Shown one piece after another: positions 4,656 through 53,497 of a stretch of 64,000 bases of DNA (position 1 is the first letter of the stretch; each line of letters begins with the position of its first letter). Both the position numbers and the translations under genes were made by a program. Source of the stretch: Alphaproteobacteria bacterium (GTDB lineage Bacteria; Pseudomonadota; Alphaproteobacteria; M2410); assembly GCA_030614785.1 (NCBI GenBank), contig JAUWTJ010000010.1:615-64614 (forward strand), in the 5' to 3' direction. Below the pieces are notes generated by a model. The model searched no databases and was not told where the DNA came from. It saw nothing but the letters and a program-made list of their open reading frames with translations.

Positions 4656-5132
4656 GTGTCGCTAAAATTGACCAGATCCGACCTGTTGCTGCTCGACGCC
4701 CTGCAGTGCGATGCCTCCAGATCCCAACAGGAGCTCGCCGATATCGCGGGCATTTCGAAGACCTCATGCTGGCGCCGCATGCGCGAACTGGAAGATGCGA
4801 GGGTCATTACCAAACGGACAGTGCTTCTTGATCCGGAAAAACTTGACCTGACCGTGCAGGTACTCGTCAGCGTCTCCATGATCGCGCACGAAGATTCCAT
4901 CCGCCGCGCCTTCGAGGTCCATGTCGAGGATCTGAGCGAGGTTACTGAATGCTATTCAATATCCGGCGACTGGGATTACATCCTCCACGTCGTCACCGAC
5001 AGCATCGCGACATACAATCAGTTCCTCAACAAATGCCTGCTGGGACATAAGTCTGTCAGATCTGCAAGCTCAAGCTTCTCACTGCGCCAGGTTAAATACA
5101 CCACCCGACTGCCGGTTCGGATGCATCTGTAA
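4656..5132 (+). CDS. Lrp/AsnC family transcriptional regulator
   Basis: LQCDASRSQQELADIAGISKTSCWRRMRELE HTH; ECYSISGDWDYILHV RAM domain; divergent from tpl. Confidence 0.93.
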   Translation: MSLKLTRSDLLLLDALQCDASRSQQELADIAGISKTSCWRRMRELEDARVITKRTVLLDPEKLDLTVQVLVSVSMIAHEDSIRRAFEVHVEDLSEVTECYSISGDWDYILHVVTDSIATYNQFLNKCLLGHKSVRSASSSFSLRQVKYTTRLPVRMHL

Positions 5133-5189: not shown

Positions 5190-6905
5190 TTACGATATAA
5201 ACTCAGCCAGTAACGCTTTCCATTCAGCATAATAGAAATAGTGACCCCAATCATCGCGGATGGTGGTCGTGCAGTTCGGAATGAGATTGGACAGGGCATC
5301 GGCATGTTCAGGATGGCAATAGTGGTCTTGCCGGCCGTGCCAGAGAAACGTCGGTGCAGAAATTTCAGAAACAGAAAACCCCCAGGGCCTGGAGACCATG
5401 ATGAGGTCTTCAGTGAGAGCAGACGTCGGAATTTCGCCTGCCTCCCTGAGGTTTCTAAGGCAAATCCTGTGAATTTCCGGATCATTCAACAGAGCCTTGT
5501 CAGCCTCGCTGCCTCTTGTCGCAAAATCCTTCATGGCGTCTTCAGGCACCTCATACATCCGGCGATACCGGATTTCCAGCAAGGCTCTTGCCCCTTTTGG
5601 CCAGTGCCGCGCCATTGAGGTGAAAAACTTTTTTGGCAAAGTGTCACTCGCTGCGTCCGGCAGTTCATCGACAGGCGCTGACGACGCCACAAGGCCGAGC
5701 CTCGTAACCCGTTCCGGGAACCAGGCAGCACAAGCCATAGCGTGAGGCCCGCCTCCGGAAATGCCAATGACAGAAAATCGGGCAACTTCAAGTCTGTCGG
5801 CCAGTTCAGCCATGTCCCTTGACCAATCTTGCAGGGTTTGCCCTGCGTGGGGTGATGATCCTCCTACACCCGGGCGCTCGGGAACGATCAACCGGATGTT
5901 GAGGTCTTCCAGCAGCGCCTCGTCATCTTCCCTCTCCGTGCGCAACCCGTAAAGTTGATGGATCAGAATGACCGGGCTGCCATGTCGCGGTCCAAAGTCG
6001 CCATAGCTCAGAAATCGGCCATCCCGAAGTGTCATTTGCTGCCCAAGACCAAGGTAGGAGTCTTCTGGTTTCCCAGCCTCCATCTTGTCTGTTTTGAGCA
6101 GGCGCATCCACATGGCAGGGCCGCTCAAGACAAGAGAAACAAGCTCACCCTGCCGACGAGAGCCGGTTTTCGTATAGACTTGTTTAATTTGGGTACGAAC
6201 GGTGTTGATCGAAATTTTCTTCCGGGTAGAGATTTCTTCCAGCGACATTCCCTGAATCAAATAGGCGACAACCTCTGCTTCAGACCGTGTCAAACCATGG
6301 GCTTCCATCAGGATGGGTGATATCTCGTCATTATTGTGAAGTCCGAAATTGAAGAAAAGTGCTGCATGAAACTCGCCATCCCCGGAGAGCCCCCTTGGCA
6401 AGGGGGCAATGAGGATCACCCCGAAACCATCGGCTTGACCAGAATGTGCCAAAGCTGCGCTTTGTCCGGTCTTGAGGACGTTAGACAGCGTTGACTGCAG
6501 GTTTTCTCGAAAGTCCATGTCGTCGGAGGTCAGGAAACGCCCATGCCGGCCGAGCAGCGAACCGCTTTCCAGGTAGCCTTCAGCCGCCGTCGTCATACTG
6601 ACAATTTCCAGATCGTCTCCAACAATGACAACAGGCAAGGGCAGATCTTGCAACTTGAGTGCTCGAAACTTCTCTTTTTCTTCGCTGGTCGAGCGCAAGG
6701 CTTCATATTCGAGAGCCTGTTCCAGATAGGGTAAAATCGGCTCGAGATCTGCCTTGTCAAAGGTCTGCGCAGCAATCCGGTGTGCCGCAGTGCCACCGGA
6801 AACAACAAGGGCCTGTTCCGAGAGGCCGATCCAGGATTTTGGCGCGAAGATACTTTCATCAAATAGAGCGACAACCGCAGCGGTGTCCAGTTTGGTGTCT
6901 TTCAT
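5190..6905 (-). CDS. PAS-like + LuxR-type HTH + C-terminal alpha/beta hydrolase fusion protein
   Basis: LPLPVVIVGDDLEIVSMTTAAE (PAS-like); GLTRSEAEVVAYLIQGMSLEEIS...TVRTQIKQVYTKTGSRRQGEL (LuxR HTH); GISGG nucleophile elbow, GRQD and WGHY. Start placed at MKDT (6905); the ORF extends to 6947. Confidence 0.85.
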   Translation of the reverse strand: MKDTKLDTAAVVALFDESIFAPKSWIGLSEQALVVSGGTAAHRIAAQTFDKADLEPILPYLEQALEYEALRSTSEEKEKFRALKLQDLPLPVVIVGDDLEIVSMTTAAEGYLESGSLLGRHGRFLTSDDMDFRENLQSTLSNVLKTGQSAALAHSGQADGFGVILIAPLPRGLSGDGEFHAALFFNFGLHNNDEISPILMEAHGLTRSEAEVVAYLIQGMSLEEISTRKKISINTVRTQIKQVYTKTGSRRQGELVSLVLSGPAMWMRLLKTDKMEAGKPEDSYLGLGQQMTLRDGRFLSYGDFGPRHGSPVILIHQLYGLRTEREDDEALLEDLNIRLIVPERPGVGGSSPHAGQTLQDWSRDMAELADRLEVARFSVIGISGGGPHAMACAAWFPERVTRLGLVASSAPVDELPDAASDTLPKKFFTSMARHWPKGARALLEIRYRRMYEVPEDAMKDFATRGSEADKALLNDPEIHRICLRNLREAGEIPTSALTEDLIMVSRPWGFSVSEISAPTFLWHGRQDHYCHPEHADALSNLIPNCTTTIRDDWGHYFYYAEWKALLAEFIS

Positions 6906-6944
6906 TTCTTGTGCACCCCCCAAACCCACATCGTATTGGTGCAC

Positions 6945-6990
6945 CATACACCATATGGGTGATGTGGCTACTATTTGGAATAATTATAAT
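6945..6990 (+). promoter_or_regulatory. 20-bp quasi-palindromic box CATACACCATATGGGTGATG (copy 1) plus TATAAT -10
   Basis: Box 6945-6964 is identical to 7227-7246. TATAAT lies at 6985-6990, 40 nt from the box start. Confidence 0.65.
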
Positions 6991-7226
6991 GCGGGTGTAG
7001 GCCGCAGTGGTAGCAGGCTCGCTTTGCCAAAAATCCGCAGAGGGAACTCGAAGATGAACCCCTGAAGTGGCCAAAAGGACAACAAGGCCATGGCCGTCGA
7101 CGGCGTGAACGTGTGGTAGAGGGGAGTGTTCAGTCGTCCGGATTGGCAGGTGTGGTGAGTACAGCGGCAGCCCCGGATGAAGTCCCGAGAGGCAATCAGC
7201 TCAGAGAAGTTAAACAATCTGACCTG

Positions 7227-7272
7227 CATACACCATATGGGTGATGACAGCCTGAATGGCCCCGCCTACGGT
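7227..7272 (+). promoter_or_regulatory. 20-bp box (copy 2) plus TACGGT -10-like hexamer
   Basis: Exact copy of box 1, with a TAnnnT hexamer at the same 40-nt offset (7267-7272), upstream of the PEP-CTERM ATG at 7336. Confidence 0.6.
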
Positions 7273-7335
7273 GGCGCGAGAAGTGTTATGCAGCTGGGTG
7301 GCTGTATTTGGAAATGGATATCCGGGGGATTCAAG

Positions 7336-8049
7336 ATGAAATTCGGTAACAAGGTGATGGCGGCTGCAGTCGTCGCGGCGATGACGGGCATTTCGGCTCA
7401 AGCAACGGTGATTGATCAGGGCGACATAACGCTTGATCAGAACACAGGATATCAATGGCTGGACCTATCGTTCACTGTCGGCCAGAGCTACAACTATGCA
7501 CTGGGCATTGCCGATAGCCAGTTTGGCGGCGGATGGGTCGTTGCAACAAGTGCCGAGGTCCTGGCCTTCTGGACCAGCGCCACCGGCATTACATCCTGGC
7601 CCGGCCTTACATGGACGTCCGGCTTGGACGCTGCAACTTCGACACTAGGGGCGCTGGTTGGCTATACTTATGAATTTAACTATGAGTATTCTCCGGGCCT
7701 CTTCAACACAGGCAAACAAATCATCGGATATCACTCAGGATTGATCAATGTCGATGAGACCAATGCCGGGTCGCTCGGTTTGATCGTCAACGCAAATCAG
7801 CCCGGCCAAGGGTACGTGGAATACAAGTCGAACTATTACGGTCCATACGGCAGTGCTGCGAATCGAGGTACGTGGCTTATTCGTGGCGACAATATTCGCC
7901 CCCAGGCGCCTTCCGGAGACATCGATCCTGATGCCGTCCCCGAACCCTCCACCCTCGGACTATTCGGTGCAGGCTTTATGTCCCTCGGCTTCATCGGCTA
8001 TGGGCGTCGCCGGCGGCAACGTCGTTCTGCATCTTTCGTAACCCTCTGA
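7336..8049 (+). CDS. PEP-CTERM sorting domain surface protein
   Basis: Signal peptide MKFGNKVMAAAVVAAMTGISAQA; C-terminal VPEPSTLGLFGAGFMSLGFIGYGRRRRQRR (PEP, TM helix, Arg cluster). Confidence 0.88.
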   Translation: MKFGNKVMAAAVVAAMTGISAQATVIDQGDITLDQNTGYQWLDLSFTVGQSYNYALGIADSQFGGGWVVATSAEVLAFWTSATGITSWPGLTWTSGLDAATSTLGALVGYTYEFNYEYSPGLFNTGKQIIGYHSGLINVDETNAGSLGLIVNANQPGQGYVEYKSNYYGPYGSAANRGTWLIRGDNIRPQAPSGDIDPDAVPEPSTLGLFGAGFMSLGFIGYGRRRRQRRSASFVTL

Positions 8050-8210
8050 ACCATAAGAGGGCGATCAAGAGCCTCAAGGACAAGGTCACTGTGAGTATCA
8101 CCCTTGGTCTCCGCTGTGTACTGGCCAACACGCATTTGTGTACCGGTCACACGGAAAACTTCAGGGGAACATCAAGGAAATCAAAGGGTTAGTCAAGGAA
8201 AAGTCTTGAG

Positions 8211-8403
8211 ATCTGGTGGTGGGTGCAGTCAGCTGCGAACCCATCTCCGGCGGATTTCCCTGTTTTACAGGGAATTAACAGGGAATTTTGTCGAAATTGG
8301 ACCAATCGGTCGCAGGATCGGTTCTGAAATGCGCAAGATCCCGCACCTTCAAGCCCAAATTCCCTAAAACTTTAACAAGGTAATTTCCTGCAGGAACAGG
8401 GAA
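8211..8403. repeat. Degenerate tRNA-3'-end-like sequence followed by ACAGGGAA/TTCCCT boxes (att-like element end)
   Basis: ATCTGGTGG at 8211; TGGTGG-N13-CGAACC at 8217-8241; TTCCCTGT-TTT-ACAGGGAA hairpin at 8256-8274; further ACAGGGAA at 8278 and 8396. Confidence 0.45.
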
Positions 8404-8505: not shown

Positions 8506-9054
8506 ATGGCAGAACTTGAAGCTCTTGGGACGCGTTACGGCGAGGCGTTCTGGCGTGCACATCATGAGGCGTGGAAGCGCAGTAGCTTGAATCAACGAGA
8601 GTATTGCGAGGCGCAGAGGATCTCGCTAAAGGCCTTTGGCAACTGGCGCGCAAAGTTCACGGCCGAGCCAGAGGCCCCGGTTCGCCAGCTTTTGTACCGC
8701 CGCGGTGATTTAAGTCACACCCTAAGTCACAGTCTAAGTCACCCCTTTAGTCACACCCTAAGTCATATGATTTATCCCTCTTCTTCCTGCGAGCTAGGTC
8801 CTGTTGTTCCACCGGTGCGAGCCGGTCACCGACGTCGCTTCAGAGAATCTGACCGCCGGCACATCGTGGCTGAAGCAGACAAGCCGGACGCGAGCGTGTC
8901 GGAAGTTGCTCGGCGCTATGGCATCGCCAAACGAGTCCTCTTCCGCTGGAGACAGGAGCTGGCAGCGGCTGGGCCAGCTTTTGTGGCCGTTGAGATCAGT
9001 GATGCACCTCTTGGAGCATGCGTTGTGGCTCAAGAGGAGGAGGCTTCCTCATGA
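8506..9054 (+). CDS. tnpA: IS66 accessory protein TnpA (two HTH-like modules)
   Basis: WRAHHEAWKRSSLNQREYC...AFGNWRAKF and RRRF...SVSEVARRYGIAKRVLFRWRQ; ATGA overlap with tnpB. Confidence 0.82.
   Translation: MAELEALGTRYGEAFWRAHHEAWKRSSLNQREYCEAQRISLKAFGNWRAKFTAEPEAPVRQLLYRRGDLSHTLSHSLSHPFSHTLSHMIYPSSSCELGPVVPPVRAGHRRRFRESDRRHIVAEADKPDASVSEVARRYGIAKRVLFRWRQELAAAGPAFVAVEISDAPLGACVVAQEEEASS
8711..8770 (+). repeat. Five tandem 12-bp units (consensus TAAGTCACACCC) inside tnpA
   Basis: TAAGTCACACCC, TAAGTCACAGTC, TAAGTCACCCCT, TTAGTCACACCC, TAAGTCATATGA; encode LSHTLSHSLSHPFSHTLSHM. Confidence 0.9.
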
Positions 9055-9404
9055 CACTTCTGCCTCCCGGCCTAAAAGTCCATCTGGCGGCTGGCTACAC
9101 CGACATGCGCAAGGGCATGGATGGGCTGACTGTCCTGGTTCAGGAAGTACTGAGCCAGGATCCATTCAACGGCCATCTCTTCGCCTTCCGGGGTCGCAGG
9201 GCCAATCTGATCAAGATCGTTTACTGGGACGGAACGGGTCTGTGCCTCTTCACCAAGCGGCTCGAACATGAGGTCTTCTTGTGGCCGCCCAATCTTGAGC
9301 CAGGGCGTACGCTGTCTCTCACCTCGGCGCAACTCTCGGCCCTGATCGAGGGGATTGACTAGCACAGCCCTCAGCGCCGTTGGCGGCCTGCCGTGGCGGG
9401 GTAA
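9051..9404 (+). pseudogene. tnpB: IS66 TnpB with a premature stop near the C-terminus
   Basis: TDMRKGMDGL, LFAFRGRRANLIKIVYWDGTGLCLFTKRLE. TAG at 9360-9362 replaces the W of EGIDW; the frame continues HSPQRRWRPAVAG to TAA 9402-9404. Confidence 0.85.
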
Positions 9405-9441
9405 ATCACTACCTCTGTTGCCCAGGTCTGGAATCGTGTTT

Positions 9442-9762
9442 ATGAACATCGATCTTGCTGCCCTGCCTCATGATGTCGATACATTGCACCGGATGATCTG
9501 CGATCTGGTTGCCGAGCAAGATGGCGAGCGCGTTGAGGCGCAGGCGGAGATCGACCGACTGCGGAATATTGTAAAGACGCTCCAGCGCAGTCAGTTCGGA
9601 CGCCGCTCCGAGCACCTTGATGATGATCAGCTCCAGCTTGCTCTTGAAGACCTTGATGCTGATATCGCCAGCGCCGTAGCAAGCCAGCCGGAAACGGACG
9701 ATGAACAGGTCAGGAATGAGCGCTTACCACCGATCGTAAGCATCCCGGGAATGCACACTTGA
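9442..9762 (+). pseudogene. tnpC: IS66 transposase TnpC, N-terminal fragment only
   Basis: LPHDVDTLHRM...LQRSQFGRRSEHLDDDQLQLALE leucine-zipper region, then runs into the right IR; the DDE domain is absent. Confidence 0.85.
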
Positions 9763-10776: not shown

Positions 10777-12213
10777 TCACGGTTCCACTGTTTGTAACTC
10801 AGGCGGAACCCAGGTTCCGTTCAGGATCGGTTCTTGAGGACGATAGGCTCTGAGTGTCAGCGCGAAACGGCCATCAGGTGCTGGTAGCCAATTTCCCTCC
10901 AGGCCTTTTCCTGGCGATTGATATTGTAGATAGAGTGTCAAGCTGCCATCGTCATTGTAGGTCAGGTCTGGCGAGCGATCCCCGATCGAGTAACGATCAA
11001 TGGAATTATCGACCAGATTGGCATCATGCCCGTACATGGTCACCGACCAGAAAGCATCGACCGGCGGCAACTGTCCTGCCGGGAAGGTCAATTGATAAGA
11101 AGCTTTGCTGCCGTCAAAAAATTGTCCGTATTCGTCCCTGGATCGCCCAAAGTATCGCCCTTCCTCAGGGTAGTTTGGTGCAATTCCCTTGAAGCTCTGT
11201 ACGATACCCCGTGTAAAGTACTCACCGGCGGCACCCAGTCTGCCTGCTTCAAGCGGGTTTCTTCTCCAGCCATTTACGATATCGCCGCCGGGCGTGTCAG
11301 CGCGGGCGCGGATGGCGAGCTTGTGAGCATCGCGTGCTGCACGGGCGAGCCCGCGTTTGCTGTCTTCGTCCAGAGTATCAAGGTTCTGATTTGGCCCGAT
11401 GTGCACTTCCGCAAAGAAATTGAGCAATGCATTTTCCGTGGCAGGTGGCGGATTTTCCGTCATGGCACGATTGATCGTTCGCCAGGAGGCCAGCGGATCT
11501 TGCTTGATCTTATAGGGAGGCCACACGTCTCGCGATGCTGGCACCGAATCTTGAGGCGTGCCCCAATAACTTAGAGGGGTAAGGAGAAACTGATCCTGCA
11601 GTTTGGAAACGTTGGACATGTCACCCTTGCCGTCGACCATAGTTCGCCCCAGCAACAACACCCAGGGCGTGGGGGTCGCCTTCAGTGTCTTTACTCCATC
11701 CGGAAGTCGTCCGTCGAAACCCTCCCTCACAATTGCATAGTGACCTGCGGCTGCGCCCGTGGCCCTTTGACTAACAACATCGAAGACATCTGATGTGTAC
11801 CCGGATAGATGAAAACTGAAGTTACGTTCTCCCATGTCCGGGTGGCTCAAAATCACAGGTTCATCGCCCACGTAAATCCAGGCGACGGAATAAACAGTAT
11901 CATTATTGGGGGTGCCACCATCCCTGTATGTAGCGTCCGCCAGTTTGTTGGCGTGATAAAAGTGGTTGATCGGAGCGTAGGGATAGTATTCCGGGTCACG
12001 GGGAATATTCGTCCACATCCAGCGTAGTTGCGACATGTAAAGATAAGGCAGTGTGTAGGGGTAAGCTGCCATGCCGACCGAGTAGGCATATTCCTCGCGC
12101 CACGGCTGCGCGTTTTCTGATTCCGCCAGCGCAGGCTGAATGCCAGACGTAATGACGCTGGCGATAATTGTCGCTGCGATCAATACGGTTCTTTTCGCTT
12201 GAAGTATTCCCAT
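10777..12213 (-). CDS. DUF1254/DUF1214 domain periplasmic protein
   Basis: Signal peptide; TPNNDTVYSVAW; PPVDAFWSVTMY...NSIDRYSIGDR; NWLPAPDGRFALTLRAYRP. Confidence 0.88.
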   Translation of the reverse strand: MGILQAKRTVLIAATIIASVITSGIQPALAESENAQPWREEYAYSVGMAAYPYTLPYLYMSQLRWMWTNIPRDPEYYPYAPINHFYHANKLADATYRDGGTPNNDTVYSVAWIYVGDEPVILSHPDMGERNFSFHLSGYTSDVFDVVSQRATGAAAGHYAIVREGFDGRLPDGVKTLKATPTPWVLLLGRTMVDGKGDMSNVSKLQDQFLLTPLSYWGTPQDSVPASRDVWPPYKIKQDPLASWRTINRAMTENPPPATENALLNFFAEVHIGPNQNLDTLDEDSKRGLARAARDAHKLAIRARADTPGGDIVNGWRRNPLEAGRLGAAGEYFTRGIVQSFKGIAPNYPEEGRYFGRSRDEYGQFFDGSKASYQLTFPAGQLPPVDAFWSVTMYGHDANLVDNSIDRYSIGDRSPDLTYNDDGSLTLYLQYQSPGKGLEGNWLPAPDGRFALTLRAYRPQEPILNGTWVPPELQTVEP

Positions 12214-12258
12214 GATTGTCTGTCCATTTGCTGGTCGATATCGACATGTGTGCCAAGT

Positions 12259-12570
12259 TCAGGTTTCCTCGGGACCAGGGGCCACTCCTGTCCGTTTGGT
12301 CTTTTGTCTTCTATTGACAGTATTGATGATGGTGTAGAGGCCCGCGACCGGAACGACGATCATTGCGCCCAGCCCGATGGTCCCGGCGATGGCGCCAATG
12401 GTGGCCCAGCCCATATCCGTCATTGAACGCCACATTTGGAGACCGTAAACCAGAAGATCAAGCGCGCGAATGCCGAGCGCGGACAGGATGGTTCCGGCAA
12501 TCGCGCAAGCGATGACGAGCTGCAAGGACGGAACAAGCAATCGCCTGGATCGAAGTTGTGAATTTGCCAT
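12259..12570 (-). CDS. Small two-TM membrane protein of unknown function
   Basis: Two hydrophobic segments, AAGGGG RBS, co-oriented between the sulfatase and DUF1254 genes. Confidence 0.55.
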   Translation of the reverse strand: MANSQLRSRRLLVPSLQLVIACAIAGTILSALGIRALDLLVYGLQMWRSMTDMGWATIGAIAGTIGLGAMIVVPVAGLYTIINTVNRRQKTKRTGVAPGPEET

Positions 12571-12582
12571 GTGCCGTTCCCC

Positions 12583-14124
12583 TTACTCTGTTGACGTCTC
12601 TTTCGTGTCCTTGTTCGCGCCTTGTTGTTGCTGCAGCTTCAACAGAACCCGTTTGACTTCTTCGGGGGAATTGAGAGCTGGCGGAATTGTGAATGAGAGC
12701 GGAGTGCGATAGTCATCGCCGGTTTTTATGCCGCCGTATTTGTAGAGGCTACCGGCGAGACGCAGGACCGGCTCATAGGCCTGGGGGATGATCCACAATT
12801 TGGTGCCCATTATGTCCACCTCTTCACGAGGGTCTTTCTCGATGTCAAAAATCATATGCCCATAAAGGTCGTGGTGCATGCGCGATGTTGGAGAAGGATC
12901 ATCGCCAACAAAGAACAACTTGAATTGCCTCCACTTTACGGCCAGAAGTTTCTTGTCGAGAAAGGTGATGATGTGCTCTCGGTTTGATTTTTCGCTCTTG
13001 CCGAGGAAAAAGTCGCGTTGGTCGACGCCGTCATAGGCCCGGTCTGTCGGAAAGGTTGCGTCGGCAAGCGAGGCGAAGGTCGGGAAGAAGTCGAGGATCG
13101 AGACGATCTCGTTTGTTTCTCTGCCTGAGGGGATGACACCGGGCGCACTCATGATCATTGGTGTCCGGATAGAGCCCTCATATGCACTTCCAAGGTATCC
13201 GCGATAGGGGCCGGAGTTTGAAACGGTCGGGTATTCAGATGCATCCGGTCCGTTGTCACTGGCGTAGACAATGATAGTGTTGTCGGCAAAACCTGCGTCC
13301 ACCAAAGCCTTGCGGATTTGGCCAACCCGATAATCGTGCTCTGCCATCATGTCTGCAAAGTCGCCGACACCGGTCTTGCCCTTGAAGTCCGGATTGGGAA
13401 CATAAGGATGGTGCATCAGCGACCAGGATACAAACAGGAAGAAGGGTTCCTCAGAGCCTTTGGCCTGCTTTATGTAGTTGATGGACTTCTCAGCGATCAA
13501 CTCATCCATCTTGCCGCGCATTTCCCGGTCGTAGCGGGCGATTTTCTGCACCGGACCATTTCGTTTTGATGACAAAATATACGGCCATTCGCTTTCGCGG
13601 CCCTGATAACCCTGAGCGTCATAGCGATAGACCACGCCAGTGCTAAACGGAAATCCCCACCACTCGTCAAAGCCTTGATCCGTTGGATAGCGGCCCTGGC
13701 TGTCGCCAAGGTGCCACTTTCCAAAAATGGCAGTCTTGTAACCGGCATCGGAAAGCATTTCGGCCATTGTATATTCCCAAGGCGCCAGGCCTTGAGGAAA
13801 GCCGGGAATGCCGGCGCGTCCCGTTCCAGAACGTATGGGAAGGCGTCCGGTCATGAGCGCCGAACGGGAAGGTGTGCATTCCGGTTCTACATTGAAATTT
13901 GTAAAGCGCGTACCTTCTGCGGCTAGTTGATCAAGGCTGGGCGTCGGGACCCCGCGGATTGGCCCGCCACCGTATGCGCCAAGTTCACCATAGCCAAGAT
14001 TATCGCTCAGCATAAAAACAATATTGGGGCGCCGGGGCATCTCATCTGCAGTGGCTGATGATATCGCGGCCAGATTTGTACAAACTGCAAGAAGCAGCAG
14101 GCGTGAAGTGATTGATGTATACAT
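12583..14124 (-). CDS. Arylsulfatase (Cys-type, secreted)
   Basis: PNIVFMLSDNLG, CTPSRSALMTGR, GKWHLG, SDNG; signal peptide from MYTSITS (14124). Confidence 0.92.
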   Translation of the reverse strand: MYTSITSRLLLLAVCTNLAAISSATADEMPRRPNIVFMLSDNLGYGELGAYGGGPIRGVPTPSLDQLAAEGTRFTNFNVEPECTPSRSALMTGRLPIRSGTGRAGIPGFPQGLAPWEYTMAEMLSDAGYKTAIFGKWHLGDSQGRYPTDQGFDEWWGFPFSTGVVYRYDAQGYQGRESEWPYILSSKRNGPVQKIARYDREMRGKMDELIAEKSINYIKQAKGSEEPFFLFVSWSLMHHPYVPNPDFKGKTGVGDFADMMAEHDYRVGQIRKALVDAGFADNTIIVYASDNGPDASEYPTVSNSGPYRGYLGSAYEGSIRTPMIMSAPGVIPSGRETNEIVSILDFFPTFASLADATFPTDRAYDGVDQRDFFLGKSEKSNREHIITFLDKKLLAVKWRQFKLFFVGDDPSPTSRMHHDLYGHMIFDIEKDPREEVDIMGTKLWIIPQAYEPVLRLAGSLYKYGGIKTGDDYRTPLSFTIPPALNSPEEVKRVLLKLQQQQGANKDTKETSTE

Positions 14125-14149
14125 GTCTACCCCGAAGTGGTTTGGAGAT

Positions 14150-16387
14150 TTAGCGATTGCCCAGACGTATAGTAACGTTTTCGATTTTTCCCTCAAATTC
14201 ATACGGGGAGTTGTATTGGGAGCCGACGGCAGTATTTGCATCCCTGCCAATGTCCATGCCTTCATGAGAAATTCGTGCCGCCATTGTCTTTGGCATTTCA
14301 AGTGTTCCTGCGACCTCGCCGTTTATCAACAAAGTCGCCGTTCCCATCAACTTTCCCGTCTTGTCGAACCGGAGCGAGATTTGAGATGCGCCACGAGGCA
14401 CCTTTGTATCCGATGTGACTTTGTACATCGTTCCGACACTTTTGACGTTGGCAAAATAGTTATACTCATAGACGGCACGTCCCTTGTGAATGTAAAGGAC
14501 CAGACCGGAATCGTGATTGCCGTTGGCAAATAGCACACCATTTTCGGATCCGGTTGGCCGGTCAATGCTGGCCGTGATCGAAAAACTCCTGTCGATAAAG
14601 TCAGGTGTTGCAAAGTCAGTAACGTGCGAGGCTCTCGGGTAGTAGATGAATTCGTGCTTTTTCGGGTTCTTTGCAGCTCTCTTCTTCATCTCCTCTTTGA
14701 TTTTCGGGCCGGGATTTTCCAGATCAACCATCAATGCCGCATTGACCTGTTCGCCTTCGCGGCGCCAAACCTCTTTCATCCGGGCGAGTTTTTCGGGATA
14801 TGTGTTGGCAAGATCAGTTGCGTGGGTGAAATCTTCCTCAAGATTGAACAGGGACCAGACATCGTCCGTATATTTTGTTCCGCGCTTATGAACCGCAGTA
14901 GCCATCCACCCGTGATCATAGATGCCGCGATTGTGAGCCATACGGTAGAACTGTGTTTTCCTGGCGTCAGGAGCCTCTGCCTCTGCAAAGGCGTATGTCA
15001 TGCTTTGTCCATCGACCGGGAGTTGCTGCTTGCCATCGACGCGGTCTGGTATCTCGATCCCAAGGAGATCGAGGACTGTGGGCATCACGTCACTAACAAA
15101 ATGATACTGCTCCCGAATGCCGCCTTTCGCACCCCATTTTTCATTCAGACCGTTGACGATAAAGGGAACTGAAATGCCGCCACCAGCAGCATGCTGTTTG
15201 AAATAGGGGAAAGGCGTGTTGCTAACTTGCGCCCACCCGAGGGGGTAGTTGGGAAGCGTATTGGGCCCACCGATCTCGTCGAGGCGGCGCAGGATATCGT
15301 CAGCTGTTTCAAAAATGCCATTGTTGTTGGTTGTATGATTGATCGATCCGCCGGGGCTGCCTTCCTGACTGCCGCCATTGTCGGACAAGACGATGACGAT
15401 GGTATTGTCGAGGACACCGAGCACTTCAAGCTCACTCAGGAGCCGTCCGATTTCTTCGTCTGTTTGGGTGAGGAAGCCGGCATAGGTCTCTTGAAGGCGC
15501 GCATAGACTTGTTGCTGCGTCGTGTCCAACGTTTCCCACGGCTTTACCCTTGCATCCGTTGCGGGAAGACGGGACGATTGCGGAACAAGGCCAAGGTCCT
15601 TCTGTCGCTGAAAGCGTTCGGTGCGCACTACGTCCCATCCACGATCATACCGGCCGCGCTGTTCGATCAAAAGGGATTGCGGTGCCTGGTGCGGCGCGTG
15701 CATCCCCGGTGTCGCAAGATACATAAAAAAGGGGCGATCCGGCGTGTAGGATACATGATTGTGTGCCATCTCGATCGCATGATCGACCAGATCAACTGTG
15801 AGATTATAACCCTCGGGGTATGTTTCTGAAATAACCTGGTTGTCACGGACCAGTTCTGGTGCGAACTGATCCGTCGAACCCGTCATAAAGCCGTAGAATC
15901 GATTAAAACCTTTGCCAAGGGGCCAATGGGTAAAGGGCCCTGCGGGCTGGCTATCCTTGCGCGGTGCCAAGTGCCATTTGCCAATGGCGTAAGTGCTGAT
16001 CCCTTCGTCCTGAAGGATTTGCGCAAGGGTTGCGGATTGGTCACTGATCCGACCACGGAAGGCGGGGAATGCCGGGCCAAAATCATAGCGAGCGATCAGG
16101 CCCATGCCGACCCGATGGGGGTCGCGTCCTGTGAGCAGAGAGGCGCGTGTCGGCGAACAGGTGGGTGTTGCATGGAAATTGTTGAATGTCAGTCCATCAG
16201 CAGCAAGGGCGTCAATATTGGGTGTCTCGATTTCCGAGCCATAGGCTCCCAGGTCGCCGTAGCCGACGTCGTCGAGAAGAATCAAAAGGATGTTGGGGCG
16301 CTCGCTCTCCTGCATAGAATGAGCGGGTCCTGAATAGAAAACACCAATTAACAGGAGTGCCCGAAGGGCCTTTAGTTGAAACCGCAT
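14150..16387 (-). CDS. Arylsulfatase (AtsA-like, Cys-type) with a C-terminal beta-sandwich extension
   Basis: PNILLILLDDVG, CSPTRASLLTGR, GKWHL, SDNG; signal peptide from MRFQLK (16387) with GGAGGG RBS. Confidence 0.92.
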   Translation of the reverse strand: MRFQLKALRALLLIGVFYSGPAHSMQESERPNILLILLDDVGYGDLGAYGSEIETPNIDALAADGLTFNNFHATPTCSPTRASLLTGRDPHRVGMGLIARYDFGPAFPAFRGRISDQSATLAQILQDEGISTYAIGKWHLAPRKDSQPAGPFTHWPLGKGFNRFYGFMTGSTDQFAPELVRDNQVISETYPEGYNLTVDLVDHAIEMAHNHVSYTPDRPFFMYLATPGMHAPHQAPQSLLIEQRGRYDRGWDVVRTERFQRQKDLGLVPQSSRLPATDARVKPWETLDTTQQQVYARLQETYAGFLTQTDEEIGRLLSELEVLGVLDNTIVIVLSDNGGSQEGSPGGSINHTTNNNGIFETADDILRRLDEIGGPNTLPNYPLGWAQVSNTPFPYFKQHAAGGGISVPFIVNGLNEKWGAKGGIREQYHFVSDVMPTVLDLLGIEIPDRVDGKQQLPVDGQSMTYAFAEAEAPDARKTQFYRMAHNRGIYDHGWMATAVHKRGTKYTDDVWSLFNLEEDFTHATDLANTYPEKLARMKEVWRREGEQVNAALMVDLENPGPKIKEEMKKRAAKNPKKHEFIYYPRASHVTDFATPDFIDRSFSITASIDRPTGSENGVLFANGNHDSGLVLYIHKGRAVYEYNYFANVKSVGTMYKVTSDTKVPRGASQISLRFDKTGKLMGTATLLINGEVAGTLEMPKTMAARISHEGMDIGRDANTAVGSQYNSPYEFEGKIENVTIRLGNR

Positions 16388-16420
16388 TGTCAAACCCTCC
16401 GCGAACAAGTCAGGAACTTA

Positions 16421-21571: not shown

Positions 21572-23263
21572 ATGTCCAGCCCAAACAAGAGTGAGGCGAT
21601 GATGAGTGAGAATCTGGATCCGCAAACCGGCAGGGCCGCAGATCTTCCTGGTGTTATTCGCGCCCGGATAAGGCAAGCTGTTTCAGCCCGCCCCCTGGCG
21701 GCGACGGCTTGGGTTGTCGCAGGGGTTGGCCTCGGCATTCTTCTTACCACCCTTGTTCTTCTCACGTTCCCCGACCCGGAACGCAATGGCCTGACGGCAG
21801 AGGACTTTGCCGACAAGACTTTGCCAGCTTCAGTGAAGCTGGTCGTTGAGAAGCGCACGCGTAGACCGAATGTGGTTTTCATTCTTGCCGATGATCTGGG
21901 TTACGGGGACATTAAAGCCTATGGCCCAACGCCGATCAATACGCCTAATCTTGATCAACTGGCGCAAGAGGGCGTTCGTTATACCAGCTTTTACGCCGCA
22001 GCTTCCCTTTGCTCACCTTCACGAGCAGGATTGCTGACAGGCCGATACGCCTTGCGAACGGGCATTTCATACCCGTTCCAAAATGAGGAAGTCAAAGGTT
22101 TGGGCGGATGGGTCGAAAGCCGGTTTGTCTCTTTGTTGGCCTACCTTGGCACTGCAGATCTCAAGTCGGGTGGAAACCTCGTCAACGGCTTACCGCCGTC
22201 GGAATTAACTATCGCGGAAGGTCTGAAGCAAGCGGGATATCGCACCGGCATCGTCGGCAAGTGGCATCTGGGTGACTTCAAACGTTGGCCGAAATATCAT
22301 CCTCATAAAAATGGATTTGACTGGTTCGTCGGGTTTAATGCGTCCAATGACGATTGGCCTGTTGCCTTTTATGACAACGATCAGGAGATCATTGCCGATA
22401 TCGGGTTCGAACAGGAAGCCTACACACAGATTTTCACGCAAGAAGCTGTTGAATTCATTGAGCGAAACCAGGAACAACCCTTCTTCTTGTTCTTCTCCCA
22501 CAAGGATCCCCATCAACCGTTCTTTCCTTCAAGTGGTTTTGCCGGAAAATCGAAAGGCGGTAGTTACGGCGATGCGGTCGAGGAACTGGATGGCAGTGTT
22601 GGCACTATCCTTGAAACTCTTGAGCGCCTTGATCTTGCCGAGAATACGGTTGTCATATTCACGAGTGATAACGGACCCTGGTATGAGGGAAATCCTGGAG
22701 GCTTACGCGGCCGTAAGGGCATGAGCTATGAGGGCGGGTACAAGGTGCCTTTCCTCATGCGATATCCCGGGCGAGTTGAGCCTGCAACGGTCAATGATGC
22801 CCCGGCTATGGGGATTGATTTGTTGCCTTCGATATTTGCAATGGCCGGTGTCCGCCTGCCTGATGACAGAGTGATTGATGGCATCAGCCTGGTTGACGAG
22901 ACCGGTGCTCCCCTGGCGAGTGACGTTGATCGCGGACCGATTTATTTTTTCAGCGGATATGACTTTGAGGCTGTGCGTCAGGGGCGGTACAAATTGATTG
23001 AACGCAACAGCACCTATGGGTGGCCGATTCCTCTCGACAAACCGGTCGGCTTTGCGGCAGTGACAATGCCCCGATATTCACCTGAAGGTGACGAGCGATC
23101 GATTCCGAAACTCAATTCCTGGCCAAAACTCTACGACGTCAATCTGGATCCGTCCGAGGCCTACAATCTTTCCGAATTGTATCCCGACGAGGTGACACGA
23201 CTTGAAGAGCAACTTGAAACCTGGCGCACAGAGTTCTATCGGGATCCTCGTGGGCGCCAGTGA
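21572..23263 (+). CDS. Sulfatase (Cys-type) with an N-terminal membrane anchor
   Basis: RPNVVFILADDLGYGD, CSPSRAGLLTGR, GKWHLG, SDNGPW; TM segment WVVAGVGLGILLTTLVLLTF. Confidence 0.92.
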   Translation: MSSPNKSEAMMSENLDPQTGRAADLPGVIRARIRQAVSARPLAATAWVVAGVGLGILLTTLVLLTFPDPERNGLTAEDFADKTLPASVKLVVEKRTRRPNVVFILADDLGYGDIKAYGPTPINTPNLDQLAQEGVRYTSFYAAASLCSPSRAGLLTGRYALRTGISYPFQNEEVKGLGGWVESRFVSLLAYLGTADLKSGGNLVNGLPPSELTIAEGLKQAGYRTGIVGKWHLGDFKRWPKYHPHKNGFDWFVGFNASNDDWPVAFYDNDQEIIADIGFEQEAYTQIFTQEAVEFIERNQEQPFFLFFSHKDPHQPFFPSSGFAGKSKGGSYGDAVEELDGSVGTILETLERLDLAENTVVIFTSDNGPWYEGNPGGLRGRKGMSYEGGYKVPFLMRYPGRVEPATVNDAPAMGIDLLPSIFAMAGVRLPDDRVIDGISLVDETGAPLASDVDRGPIYFFSGYDFEAVRQGRYKLIERNSTYGWPIPLDKPVGFAAVTMPRYSPEGDERSIPKLNSWPKLYDVNLDPSEAYNLSELYPDEVTRLEEQLETWRTEFYRDPRGRQ

Positions 23264-27033: not shown

Positions 27034-27432
27034 TCTGGAGAATCAGGTTTGAATCGCCGAAAAGAAGCAAGATCTTTATTCATTTTTGAGTAACATTAGC
27101 CATTGGCTTTTTAGCCCCCACCTCCGATCGCCGTCAAATCTCTCAAATTCATACAGCAAGTCGCCAAAGTAACACCAAGCCGTAGTGCCAGCACCTTCCA
27201 TACGAATCTGGAAAAGAGTTGTTCTCTGGAAAGACGAAACAAAATTCTCACAAATCAGTTTCTGAGTGACAGAAAACGGCGGTCCGCTTAGCACTTCTCT
27301 CAAGCGAGCCGAATGTCACCCATCTGGAGAAAATCCGACGTGTGAGGGCGTTCTGTGGGTTCTCCATCACGTTGGAGAGAAAAAGCAATAGATCGACCCT
27401 AACGTAACCCATTGACTTCGCCCGTAAAAACA

Positions 27433-27454
27433 AAGGGACCCAAATGGGTCCCTT
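27433..27454 (-). terminator. Intrinsic terminator after tRNA-Ala
   Basis: AAGGGACCCA-AA-TGGGTCCCTT hairpin followed on the minus strand by TGTTTTT. Confidence 0.75.
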
Positions 27455-49067: not shown

Positions 49068-49242
49068 ACTGACACTCTCTTTGAAATTCTGTGATCCATG
49101 CCCGGTTGCGAGCCACTTAACTCACCGAAATACTTGATTCTGATGAAACGTTTCGACATTGTACCGACGTAATCGGGCGCGGCCGTCCTTCAGGCCCATA
49201 CCTGCCCACATATACACTGAATCGCGAGACCCAGAGCCAATA

Positions 49243-50484
49243 ATGACAGATGCAGCAACATCCCCAAACGAGACCTATGTCATCGTCGGTGCAGGCCATG
49301 CCGCCGGGCAGCTTGCCGCCAGCCTGAGACAGGAGGGCTTTGAAGGAAAGATCGTCCTGGTCGGCGAGGAAGCCCAGCTGCCCTACCAGCGCCCGCCGCT
49401 TTCCAAGAAATATCTCTCCGGCGAATTCGGCCTTGAGCGGGTTTATTTCAAGCCACCGGACTTCTATGACGCAGCCAAGGTAGAAACCCGTCTGGCAACG
49501 CGGGTCACGAGGATTGATCGTGATGCAAAAACGCTCACCCTCGAGTCTGGCGATACCCTCGGCTATAACAAGCTGGCGCTGACCACCGGCAGCCGCGTGC
49601 GCAAGCTTCCCATCCTGGGCGCTGACCTCGCAGGCACTCATTATCTGCGCACCGTCGATGATGTTGACGGCATGCGCTCCGGCTTCGAGCCGGGCAAGTC
49701 ACTGGTCATCATTGGCGGCGGTTATATCGGCCTCGAAGTTGCTGCTGTCGCCACAAGTCACGGCCTCAAGGTGACCGTTCTGGAAATGGAATCCCGGGTC
49801 CTGAAGCGCGTCACCAGCCCCGAGCTCTCAGGCTTCTTTGAAGAAGTCCATTGCACCAGGGGCGTTGAAATCAAGTGCAAAACGGCGATTGCCGCCTTTG
49901 AGAGCGGCAGCGATGGCAAACTCGCTTTTGCGGTGACGGCAGACGGCGAGAAAATTCCCGCTGACATCGCCCTTCTGGGTGTCGGTATTTTGCCCAACAC
50001 CGAGCTCGCCGCAGAGGCCGGCCTTGAAGCGCAAAACGGCGTCCGGGTTGACGAATTTTGCCGCACCGCAGACCCGGACATCTTTGCTGCGGGCGATTGT
50101 ACCGATCACCCAAGCGCGCTTTACGATCGCCGTATCCGGCTTGAAAGCGTGCACAACGCTCTGGAACAGGCCAAGACAGCAGCCGCTGCCATGTGCGGCA
50201 ACCTCAAGGCCTATGATCAGGTGCCGTGGTTCTGGTCCGACCAGTATGATCTCAAACTACAAATCGCAGGCCTCTCGACGGGTTATGACACGGTGGTCCA
50301 GCGCGGCGATCCGGCAACAAACAAGTTTGCACTTTTCTATCTCAAGGACAGTGTACTGATCGCCGTTGACGCGGTGAACGCGGCACCGGAATATATGATG
50401 GGCCGCCGCCTCATTGGCGATCGGGCAATAATTGCACCCGAACGGCTCTCCGACACCTCCATTTCCATGAAGGAAATGGTCTAG
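49243..50484 (+). CDS. FAD-dependent ferredoxin reductase
   Basis: [56 protein letters not shown]. Confidence 0.93.
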
Positions 50485-52648: not shown

Positions 52649-53497
52649 TCAATCTGGCATGAGGGCGTGTTCGGCCAAATGTCCCAACAACATGCCGGTC
52701 AGTTTCTCAGGCGCCGCCTGGAGGATCGGCTGATGTACATTTTCGAGCACTTCAAAACGGTAAGGGCCCGTCACCTGGTTTGCATTGGCCTCAGCCGCCG
52801 CGCGTGAAATGTTCCCGGAGCCGGGAGGCCAGATGAAGAGGGTCGGCATGGGCACCGGGGCGAGGCGATCGCGCTGCCACAGAGGAATGGCGCGGTAATA
52901 ATTGTAGACAGCCTCAAGAGCTTCATCCGAATCGAGAGCCTTGCGGTACGGATCGGTTTCCTCCGGCGGCATGCCTTGTTTGTCCAGCATGCGATGGAAC
53001 ATGGCCCGCTCATTGCCATCCTTGCTGGAGTCCTTGAAATAGCTGAATTTTTCCCGCTGTTCCTCGGAGTTCTTTTCGGATTTTTGTGCAGCTTCAAAGA
53101 ACGCACCCTGGTGCGGAATGTTGAGACAGGCGAGTGTCAGTACCCGTTCAGGAGTGTTCGCAGCCAGTCGCCAGGCCATAGTGGCGCCGATACTGGTTCC
53201 CATGAGGTGGAAGGGTGTTCCCTCCCCGCCGAGCGCGTCGGCAATTTCACGAATATCCTGAGCGTATTCCTGCACGTGGTAGGCTTCGACGCCTTCTGGC
53301 CTGGCACCGGGACAAAACCCGCGCAGGTCAGGCGCCACGACGCGAAATCCCATCGCCGCCATAGGCGGTATCTGGTGGTGCCATTCCCAACTGTTTCGCG
53401 GAAGGCCGTGCAACAGGATCAGCAAGGGCCCTTCTTCGGGGCCATCGGCCAGTGCCGTAAAGGTAAGGCCCCGTGCTTCTATTTCGATAGTTTTCAC
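52649..53497 (-). CDS. Alpha/beta hydrolase (epoxide-hydrolase-like fold, Ser nucleophile)
   Basis: LLHGLP, VAPDLRGF, GTSIG, C-terminal VHQP. Confidence 0.85.
   Translation of the reverse strand: MKTIEIEARGLTFTALADGPEEGPLLILLHGLPRNSWEWHHQIPPMAAMGFRVVAPDLRGFCPGARPEGVEAYHVQEYAQDIREIADALGGEGTPFHLMGTSIGATMAWRLAANTPERVLTLACLNIPHQGAFFEAAQKSEKNSEEQREKFSYFKDSSKDGNERAMFHRMLDKQGMPPEETDPYRKALDSDEALEAVYNYYRAIPLWQRDRLAPVPMPTLFIWPPGSGNISRAAAEANANQVTGPYRFEVLENVHQPILQAAPEKLTGMLLGHLAEHALMPD

Follow-up and report, generated by a model that had tools for sequence, protein, structure and literature searches.

In a 64-kb stretch of an alphaproteobacterial chromosome (contig JAUWTJ010000010.1; hereafter the window, whose positions are used throughout), we have identified a gene for a regulator that combines a PAS-like domain, a LuxR-type helix-turn-helix (HTH) and an alpha/beta hydrolase domain in one polypeptide, and two identical 20-bp boxes between this gene and that for a secreted PEP-CTERM protein. 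The regulator probably acts as a dimeric one-component class II activator of surface-protein genes, in which the hydrolase domain would receive the signal, the PAS-like domain would dimerise the protein, and the box nearer to the regulator gene (box 1) would serve autocontrol. What speaks for this reading was computed directly here; namely, the domains of the protein, the conservation of the box beside its homologues, the spacing between the box and a -10-like hexamer, the secreted nature of the neighbouring gene products, and the pattern in which the catalytic triad of the hydrolase domain is conserved or lost.

The regulator gene occupies positions 5190 to 6905 on the minus strand and encodes 571 amino acids plus the stop codon, as judged from the open reading frame (ORF) and its translation, from the Pfam matches (GerE and Abhydrolase_1) and from full-length homologues. 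A longer ORF (5190-6947), which starts at 6947 and overlaps box 1, was dropped in favour of the ATG at 6905 upon alignment, in which the homologues all begin near MK... and the longer N-terminus is not conserved. The PEP-CTERM gene lies at 7336 to 8049 on the plus strand, and both boxes are located in the 430-bp intergenic region between the two genes. Box 1 (6945-6964) and box 2 (7227-7246), both predicted to be quasi-palindromic operators from their sequence and their conservation, are exact plus-strand copies of the 20-mer CATACACCATATGGGTGATG; in the window, no further copy was found even when three mismatches were allowed. At this tolerance, 0.01 matches would be expected by chance in 64 kb, and none of 100 shuffles (0/100) gave two or more matches. 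Each box is followed by a hexamer that begins 40 nt past the start of the box, i.e., 21 nt past its end: TATAAT at 6985-6990 and TACGGT at 7267-7272 on the plus strand. From sequence and spacing, these are the predicted -10 elements of two promoters, P1 and P2, with predicted starts near 6997 and 7279, the latter leaving a leader of about 57 nt. The lower edge of box 1 (6945) is 39-40 nt, and its centre 49.5 nt, from the regulator ATG. The earlier note on this DNA had described the twin quasi-palindromes, each 40 nt upstream of a TAnnnT hexamer, and the position of the first about 40 nt upstream of the regulator start, and the coordinates above bear it out. An Rfam scan of 6800-7500 at E<=1 returned zero matches; known RNA elements are hence absent from both the intergenic region and the leader.

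The box recurs beside homologues of the regulator. Loci (numbered L001 onwards) were gathered from one-genome-per-species contigs (79), from metagenomes (16) and, in several cases, by look-up of exact proteins; about 32 of them encode a protein with both HTH and hydrolase domain, and the other 67 are hydrolase-only relatives in Verrucomicrobiota, Actinomycetota and other groups, which served as a natural control for the box search. By direct search first and with a position weight matrix second, we found the box adjoining the HTH-hydrolase genes in L001-L005, L007, L008, L010-L013, L015-L018, L050, L051, L058, L080, L081, L083, L085 and L100. The carriers are Alphaproteobacteria (the uncultured L001, L002, L080, L081 and L100, Cohaesibacter L050 and the cultured Antarcticimicrobium sediminis S4J41 L058), Gammaproteobacteria (metagenome-assembled genomes of Pseudomonadales L003-L005, L013 and L083, the cultured Aliagarivorans taiwanensis DSM 22990 L012 and another, L007) and Zetaproteobacteria (L008, L010, L011, L015 and L016, L010 being the cultured Mariprofundus sp. 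EBB-1). The HTH-hydrolase regulator is the sole gene common to all box-bearing loci in these three classes. At a threshold of 17 bits, the matrix gave 23 matches in 353 kb of HTH-bearing loci versus two in the 653 kb of the hydrolase-only control; raising the threshold to 20 bits left 17 and zero. Nine of the matrix matches lie outside the training set (L002, L003, L007, L051, L058, L081, L083, L085 and L100), and for six of these (L002, L003, L007, L081, L083 and L100) the distance down to an identified start codon of the regulator is 55-66 nt; for L051, L058 and L085, the positions of the genes were unresolved. Conservation of the box next to homologues, on which the earlier note had staked its reading, is thus seen in Alpha-, Gamma- and Zetaproteobacteria. 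A repetitive or mobile origin of the box was also considered and ruled out, since the window holds two copies only and the box is elsewhere tied to the regulator gene and not to an insertion sequence.

The consensus derived from the homologues is CGCATACCCCATATGGGGTATGCG, with the core CCCATATGGG and the outer arms CAT/ATG; as a wider palindrome of 20-24 bp it reads GCATACCCCATATGGGGTATGC, of which CATACACCATATGGGTGATG is the version in the window. Within the box, CCATATGG is taken as the core.

The distance between the box and the hexamer is conserved as well. When 26 boxes were read outward on both sides (52 sides) and every TAnnnT was recorded, the hexamer began exactly 21 nt past the 20-bp box on 12 of the 52 sides, and 20 to 22 nt past it on 16, against an expected background of about 0.5 per offset (binomial p ~1e-12, for loci that are not fully independent and span three classes). 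Two of the sides with this exact spacing are in the window and 10 are box sides elsewhere; the hexamer stands on the side facing the non-regulator gene, except in L010 and L016, where it faces the regulator. At the positions that align with the TACGGT of the window, and with the same spacing, we find TACCTT and TAACTT (L001), TACGGA (L100), TACGGG (L080) and TATTGG (L098). Because the TAnnnT begins 21 nt after the box, placing it as a -10 hexamer at -12 to -7 would put the box at -52 to -33 with its centre at -42.5. This is the class II position: LuxR activates from the lux box, a 20-bp palindrome that is centred near -42.5 and replaces the -35 element. The lux-box spacing claimed for the two boxes of the window hence recurs in the family, almost always on the side of a secreted-protein gene. 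No -35-like hexamer accompanies the box sites at the target promoters, and a scan of 6700-8300 for consensus sigma-70 promoters, uninformative alone, found none at either box; both fit activator-dependent promoters. Upstream of the PEP-CTERM gene, furthermore, nothing convincing was found for a sigma-54-type -24/-12 element, the sole GG-N10-GC in 6965-7340 being a poor match at 7009, in the spacer and away from the gene. A weak sigma-54-like TGGTAG-N5-TCGCT at 7008-7023 on the plus strand, in the spacer about 50 nt past box 1, is probably due to chance.

We also noticed that the operator is oriented. Toward the -10 hexamer, its distal half is mostly CATACACCAT, i.e., CATAC(A/C)CCAT, and its proximal half mostly ATGGGTGATG, so that the CACC/GGTG elements are one base out of register between the halves. 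This orientation is seen in the boxes of the window, L001, L003-L005, L012, L013, L016, L081, L083 and L085 and is kept across classes; the asymmetry may set the direction of activation. In the zetaproteobacterial L015, the recognition helix is altered (NETTVRRQIA versus SINTVRTQIK) and the box at L015 1659-1682 is a variant, CATACATCATATGATGTAT, also written CATCATATGATG; this is a possible case of co-variation between protein and operator. In two Pseudomonadales genomes, L003 (2789-4534 and ~5960-7704) and L004 (2103-3830 and 5276-6994), two paralogous PAS-LuxR-hydrolase regulators lie 1.4 kb apart, and the box is upstream of the first paralogue only, which is divergent from a large lipoprotein gene.

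The product of the gene at 7336-8049 has 237 amino acids, with the signal peptide MKFGNKVMAAAVVAAMTGISAQA and the C-terminal sequence VPEPSTLGLFGAGFMSLGFIGYGRRRR, and exceeds the cutoffs of two PEP-CTERM models (PF07589, 23.6 bits versus 20.7; TIGR02595, 27.2 bits versus 16). The set of its five closest orthologues (P0018, which is the protein of the window itself, and P0019-P0022) shows 59-100% identity, or 59-80% with the protein itself excluded; three of the orthologues could be placed on contigs (L080, L098 and L100), and all three lie beside orthologous regulators. PEP-CTERM genes adjoin the box in the window, L001 (two paralogues), L080, L098 and L100. At other loci, the box-adjacent gene encodes a lipoprotein of 465-773 amino acids with Gly/Ser-rich linkers (L003, L004, L005, L012, L013 and L087), a giant Ig-like adhesin of more than 1,954 amino acids with Big_13 and Big_6 repeats (L017 and L018), a LamG/HYR/Ig-like protein with a small secreted partner (L008) or a very large secreted protein (L007 and L058). 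No domain is shared among all these box-adjacent targets; the lipoproteins and adhesins are only partly interrelated, with no relation to the PEP-CTERM proteins. What the targets have in common is secretion or surface location, not protein family, and the proposal that the boxes are aimed at a surface protein accordingly extends from PEP-CTERM proteins to lipoproteins and giant adhesins. In L001, one PEP-CTERM paralogue is divergent from the regulator gene and the other convergent, and the start codon of either paralogue is preceded, at about 101 nt, by a box of its own with a conserved leader after it; box, 3' flank and leader align with the region of box 2 in the window. The association between box and target thus survives rearrangement. 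As a separate observation, L098, the closest large contig, encodes a second, larger PEP-CTERM protein (438 amino acids; 15018-16334, minus strand) 5 kb from the pair of regulator and PEP-CTERM genes, and no box was detected in front of it.

From these data, we infer DNA binding, activation and transcription starts as follows. A dimer of the regulator would bind the palindrome centred about 42.5 nt upstream of the start of the target, in place of a -35 element, and would recruit RNA polymerase to the promoters of adjacent genes for secreted or surface proteins; in the window, the PEP-CTERM gene would be served by two tandem box-dependent promoters, P1 and P2. The PAS-like domain would supply dimerisation, and the hydrolase domain would be the signal input that binds, and in the clade of the window probably also cleaves, a small ester-, lactone- or amide-type ligand; binding or cleavage would modulate dimerisation or DNA binding. 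Box 1, in addition, would put the regulator's own promoter under the control of the regulator.

The architecture of the protein is compatible with such a role. The LuxR/GerE-type HTH (amino acids 205-256; 6138-6293, minus strand) matches Pfam GerE with 26.0 bits versus a cutoff of 23.5, and its recognition-helix motif is S-I-N-T-V-R-T-Q-I-K; T235 is invariant among 158 full-length representatives, and R237 and K241 are nearly so. Fourteen full-length homologues were aligned at 38-98% identity. Residues 1-200 gave zero Pfam matches at E<=0.01, and thus neither a PAS domain nor the autoinducer-binding domain PF03472. In the AlphaFold2 model, nonetheless, residues 92-187 (6345-6632, minus strand) adopt a PAS-type fold of the beta2-alpha-beta3 type (beta-beta-alpha-beta-beta-alpha-beta-beta-beta), with the predicted local distance difference test (pLDDT) at about 72-87 for residues 91-150 and about 56-67 for residues 151-190, and the four-helix HTH follows at 70-88. 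When the N-terminal 270 residues were searched with Foldseek, the top matches were VqmA (7dwm, 6ide, 6ugl and 6kju) and EL222 (3p7n and 8a5r), with E from 1e-7 to 1e-6 and a probability of 1.00; isolated PAS and LOV domains came below them. A PAS fold directly N-terminal to a LuxR-type HTH, and hence the PAS-LuxR label that the protein had been given from its letters, is supported by this modelled fold. Unlike two-domain PAS-LuxR proteins, the regulator continues past the HTH with a 27-residue linker (amino acids 261-287), disordered or unmodelled by AlphaFold2, and a 284-residue hydrolase domain; it belongs to the GerE and alpha/beta-hydrolase superfamilies and is no LuxR of the N-acyl-homoserine lactone (AHL) type.

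Why the window has two boxes is suggested by its closest relatives. In L080, L098 and L100, the regulator and PEP-CTERM genes are divergent across a 141-bp intergenic region with one box, centred 49.5 nt from the start codon of the former and about 92 nt from that of the latter. In the window, box 1 retains the regulator-side distance (49.5 nt) and box 2 the target-side distance (99.5 nt), and the spacer between them is 262 bp. Within this spacer, positions 7077-7127 on the plus strand resemble the Arg-rich 3' end of the PEP-CTERM genes of L080, L098 and L100; in blastn, L100 and L080 align over 31 nt with 87% identity, and blastx matched GQQGHGRRRRERV to GMIGYGRRRREGV with E 1e-3 in a small database, which makes a weak to moderate case for a degenerate remnant of a lost paralogue. 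Since the spacer holds this remnant, the closest loci have a single box and L001 has two box-bearing paralogues, the comparison modestly suggests that the twin boxes go back to a tandem duplication, which took in the PEP-CTERM gene together with its promoter and after which most of the proximal copy was lost. Alternatively, the boxes might be a functional pair, made for cooperative binding, DNA looping or dose-tuned tandem promoters; indeed, the copies are 100% identical over 20 bp, both have a TAnnnT at the same distance, box 1 owns the better -10 hexamer (TATAAT), and L001 likewise has two boxes. The two boxes of L001, however, serve one PEP-CTERM paralogue each, and neither the single box of the three closest PEP-CTERM-linked loci nor the apparent decayed 3' end in the spacer is what a functional pair would lead us to expect; we therefore consider this explanation possible but doubtful. 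The twin operators put forward in the earlier note are thus real and identical, but they are probably no designed pair. Transcription from the box 1 promoter may still occur and run on into the PEP-CTERM gene, because TATAAT is the best -10 hexamer and no terminator is predicted on the plus strand in between, terminator-like hairpins in 6700-8300 being predicted on the minus strand only.

The hydrolase domain (amino acids 288-571; 5193-6044, minus strand) matches Abhydrolase_1 (PF00561) at residues 311-559 with 59 bits and is modelled as a canonical, complete alpha/beta hydrolase with a helical lid; an internal LuxR-type HTH followed by a full hydrolase domain, as the earlier note had it, is what the profiles return. 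The proposed triad is present in the motifs named there, with Ser383 in GISGG (codon at 5757-5759), Asp527 in GRQD and His555 in WGHY, and is invariant among 15 close homologues. Also as noted before, His316 after strand beta3 is followed by Gln (HQ) instead of the Gly of the usual HG motif; most close relatives have HH, and in the wider family His316 is followed by S, G, H, P or A. Hydrolytic activity may persist despite the loss of HG because the oxyanion hole is formed by backbone atoms. Among solved structures, the domain comes closest to 9wlv, a Microlunatus hydrolase that is itself uncharacterised (E 3.6e-31; template modelling (TM) score 0.82), and more distant kin are esterases, enol-lactonases, polyhydroxyalkanoate (PHA) depolymerases and macrolide esterases; NCBIfam similarities to enol-lactonase, PHA depolymerase and macrolide esterases are partial and below cutoff.

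The family is large, and its members differ in the triad. A profile search covered 1.84 billion representative proteins, and the best 150 matches, which were those considered, are almost all full-length proteins of 550-650 amino acids; clustered at 50% identity, the proteins with this full-length architecture make up at least about 140 clusters. In the homologue search, only two matches were named by their source, as "alpha/beta fold hydrolase". Ser-Asp-His is found in 77 (49%) of 158 aligned full-length members and Cys-Asp-His in 17 (11%); in about 40%, the nucleophile is replaced by Ala, Gly, Val or another residue, or the Asp or His is missing. Members without the triad still carry the box (L010, L011, L013, L015, L050, L051 and L058). 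Because the domain is kept in every member while many lose the catalytic residues, it is most likely, on these alignments, a sensor module with a binding or regulatory role across the family; ligand turnover may matter in the clade of the window, where the triad is invariant. Of the two halves of the earlier term, sensor-enzyme, the triad pattern favours the receptor over the enzyme for the family as a whole.

Enzymes with a DNA-binding domain in the same polypeptide are known as trigger enzymes; PutA, BirA and NadR regulate themselves and control their own metabolic pathways. The regulator might be of this kind, with a hydrolase that works metabolically and with sensing left to the PAS-like domain or to substrate turnover. 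The invariant Ser-Asp-His of the 15-member clade would agree with this, as would the complete canonical fold with a lid, whose nearest kin include esterases, lactonases and PHA depolymerases, and the role of the PAS domain as the sensor in VqmA and EL222 (PMC8284805). We nevertheless regard it as rather unlikely, given that about 40% of the 158 members lack the nucleophile, Asp or His and yet keep the domain and the DNA-recognition residues, that the seven triad-less loci listed above keep the box, and that no metabolic gene is conserved as a neighbour across the loci examined, which also leaves no hint of the ligand. The regulator differs from PutA, BirA and NadR, furthermore, in that its predicted targets are surface proteins and many members of its family are predicted pseudoenzymes.

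Several observations weigh against the activator reading or parts of it. The p-values assume independent loci, and the matrix was partly trained on sites that were later scored; at several HTH-hydrolase loci (L006, L009, L014, L020, L022, L086 and L095), the box was undetectable by the matrix. The final T is missing from the hexamer at the 21-nt distance in L080 (TACGGG), L100 (TACGGA) and L098 (TATTGG). On the regulator side of the boxes, there is neither a consistent -10 spacing nor a conserved hexamer at that distance, and the data there are compatible with positive, negative or no autoregulation. The AlphaFold2 model, built from a 15-sequence alignment, reaches medium quality (pLDDT 59-70), with residues 1-90 disordered or unmodelled. 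With the HG oxyanion motif replaced, the catalytic competence of the clade of the window is uncertain. The evidence for the PEP-CTERM remnant consists of the 31-nt blastn match and a blastx match of 13-17 amino acids. An exosortase, finally, was not found within the 64-kb window, where about 50 ORFs were scanned (those of at least 230 amino acids and a few shorter ones near the locus).

Autoregulation is proposed because box 1 lies about 50 nt from the regulator start codon, and the same region bears on its sign. We lean towards repression by occlusion, since the class II spacing is missing on the regulator side and the candidate -10 hexamers there are only 10-19 nt past the box (TACGAT at +10 in the window, TATGGT at +12 in L002 and one at +16 in L085). 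The regulator might even be mainly a repressor, whose box blocks both its own promoter and that of the target until ligand binding or hydrolysis releases it; the fixed spacing would then result from occlusion of the -35 region. Where the intergenic region is short (114-141 bp), the box must indeed overlap the regulator promoter, for in most loci 47-66 nt separate its centre from the start codon of the regulator, and the candidate -10 hexamers on this side would put it over the -35 and spacer region. LuxR/GerE-type proteins are, in general, able to repress. A repressor site, however, needs no fixed 21-nt distance to a -10 hexamer across distant taxa, and the target promoters have no recognisable -35, as is expected of promoters that depend on an activator, nor was a sigma-70-type promoter found at either box by the consensus scan; a mainly repressing regulator hence appears unlikely, and activation of the target remains the reading that we prefer. 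That another factor, such as a global regulator or the product of the Lrp/AsnC gene (4656-5132; Pfam) adjoining the regulator gene in the window, binds the box and its proximity to the regulator family is incidental is highly improbable, given that Lrp is not a conserved neighbour at other loci, that only the HTH-hydrolase gene is common to all box-bearing loci in three classes, that a 20-bp palindrome suits a LuxR-type dimer, and that the variant recognition helix of L015 coincides with the variant box CATCATATGATG.

Among known systems, the N-terminal 270 residues are structurally closest to VqmA of Vibrio cholerae and phage VP882, which has the same order of an N-terminal PAS domain and a LuxR-type HTH; no similarity to the PAS domain of VqmA was detected at the level of sequence. 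VqmA is a receptor-activator whose PAS domain binds 3,5-dimethylpyrazin-2-ol (DPO) and dimerises the protein, and its 18-bp site contains a GG-N6-CC palindrome (PMC8284805). It binds this short palindrome as a dimer and activates the adjacent gene, to which we liken the binding predicted for the regulator. VqmA, however, stops after the HTH (~230-240 amino acids), whereas the regulator has a further 310 residues of linker and hydrolase domain; the operators also differ, GG-N6-CC in VqmA versus CCCATATGGG with CAT/ATG arms. The pathway regulators PimM, PteF and CfaR of actinomycetes, as well as the LOV-LuxR photosensor EL222, similarly join a PAS or LOV domain to a LuxR-type HTH and are one-component activators that bind palindromes, and CfaR is reportedly, from the title of a paper, a PAS-LuxR family regulator; they lack the C-terminal hydrolase and differ in taxa, operators and targets (secondary metabolism or light response).

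With LuxR and the lux box, the system shares the LuxR-type HTH and a 20-bp palindrome with its centre predicted near -42.5. Unlike AHL-responsive LuxR, it has no autoinducer-binding domain (no Pfam match), its sensor modules being PAS-like and hydrolase, and no luxI-type gene is adjacent to the regulator gene; AHL receptors were only weak fold matches to the N-terminal half in Foldseek (TM ~0.2). RhlR-PqsE complexes (8dq0 and 7r3e) were also among the fold matches of this half. PqsE, which has a metallo-beta-lactamase fold, partners RhlR and boosts its DNA binding independently of catalysis; here too a hydrolase-fold protein would assist a LuxR-type factor, but PqsE is a separate polypeptide whereas the alpha/beta hydrolase of the regulator is covalently fused, and the functional parallel is our conjecture. 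Other PEP-CTERM genes reportedly depend on RpoN (sigma-54), as the title of a paper has it, and PrsR is linked with sigma-54-type PEP-CTERM promoters; unlike these, the region upstream of 7336-8049 has no convincing -24 GG/-12 GC element.

Hydrolase folds act as receptors in D14 and KAI2 (active), GID1 (inactive) and RsbQ, all of which signal via protein partners. As an analogy only, the regulator resembles them in a hydrolase fold that would sense a small molecule and that comes in active and dead versions; they lack a fused DNA-binding domain, which the regulator has, and none of them appears in the listed matches to solved structures (the 60 best by sequence and the 50 best by fold). Tentatively, and with clearly less confidence than for the activator itself, the system might be a bacterial version of the D14/KAI2/GID1 principle wired to DNA, where a hydrolase receptor, catalytic or pseudoenzyme, is fused to PAS-LuxR, and an ester or lactone signal (environmental, host- or alga-derived), upon binding or single-turnover hydrolysis, would switch on surface adhesins via the conserved class II operator. 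If so, this would be a new one-component family of signal receptors with a predicted operator and regulon, represented by at least about 140 sequence clusters.

Each element of the system has a precedent; literature searches, nonetheless, found no description of a PAS-LuxR-hydrolase fusion, of its operator or of its link to surface proteins, in agreement with the earlier remark that no characterised system with this layout was known. As text, the motif came up solely in unrelated papers, where it may stem from primers with an NdeI site. If the proposed activation is correct, an uncharacterised family, which is spread over marine and freshwater Alpha-, Gamma- and Zetaproteobacteria in those same clusters, would gain a full testable module (protein, operator consensus, promoter geometry and target class), and a hydrolase-fold sensor would be linked directly to the transcription of surface and adhesion proteins. 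The natural series of intact (Ser or Cys) and degenerate members could show an enzyme domain becoming a receptor. For PEP-CTERM biology, the regulator would be an input distinct from the route via sigma-54 that another PEP-CTERM gene reportedly takes; in synthetic biology, it might serve as a compact sensor made of a single protein and working on a defined 20-bp operator, once its ligand is known.

The window is a segment of an alphaproteobacterial chromosome whose genes include aroA, rpsA, trpA, accD, folC, addAB and several sulfatases. Directly 3' of the PEP-CTERM gene is an IS66-family remnant (8506-9762, plus strand), which comprises an ORF with HTH_Tnp_1, TnpB_IS66 (9018-9362) and, of the IS66 transposase, no more than the N-terminal leucine-zipper part (9355-9762); a decayed insertion sequence thus flanks the locus. 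Nearby, three sulfatase genes are clustered with one for a DUF1254/DUF1214 protein (10777-16408 and 21572-23263), which suggests an organism that uses sulfated polysaccharides and is possibly marine. A loose motif scan also picked up a perfect hairpin, GGGACCC-AAAT-GGGTCCC, at about 27430-27450; it is unrelated to the box and resembles a terminator stem-loop. Further along, a stand-alone alpha/beta hydrolase without HTH (52649-53497, minus strand), of the same superfamily as the hydrolase domain of the regulator, has the genes for a cytochrome P450 (50939-52204) and for a flavoprotein of the ferredoxin-reductase type (49159-50484) as neighbours.

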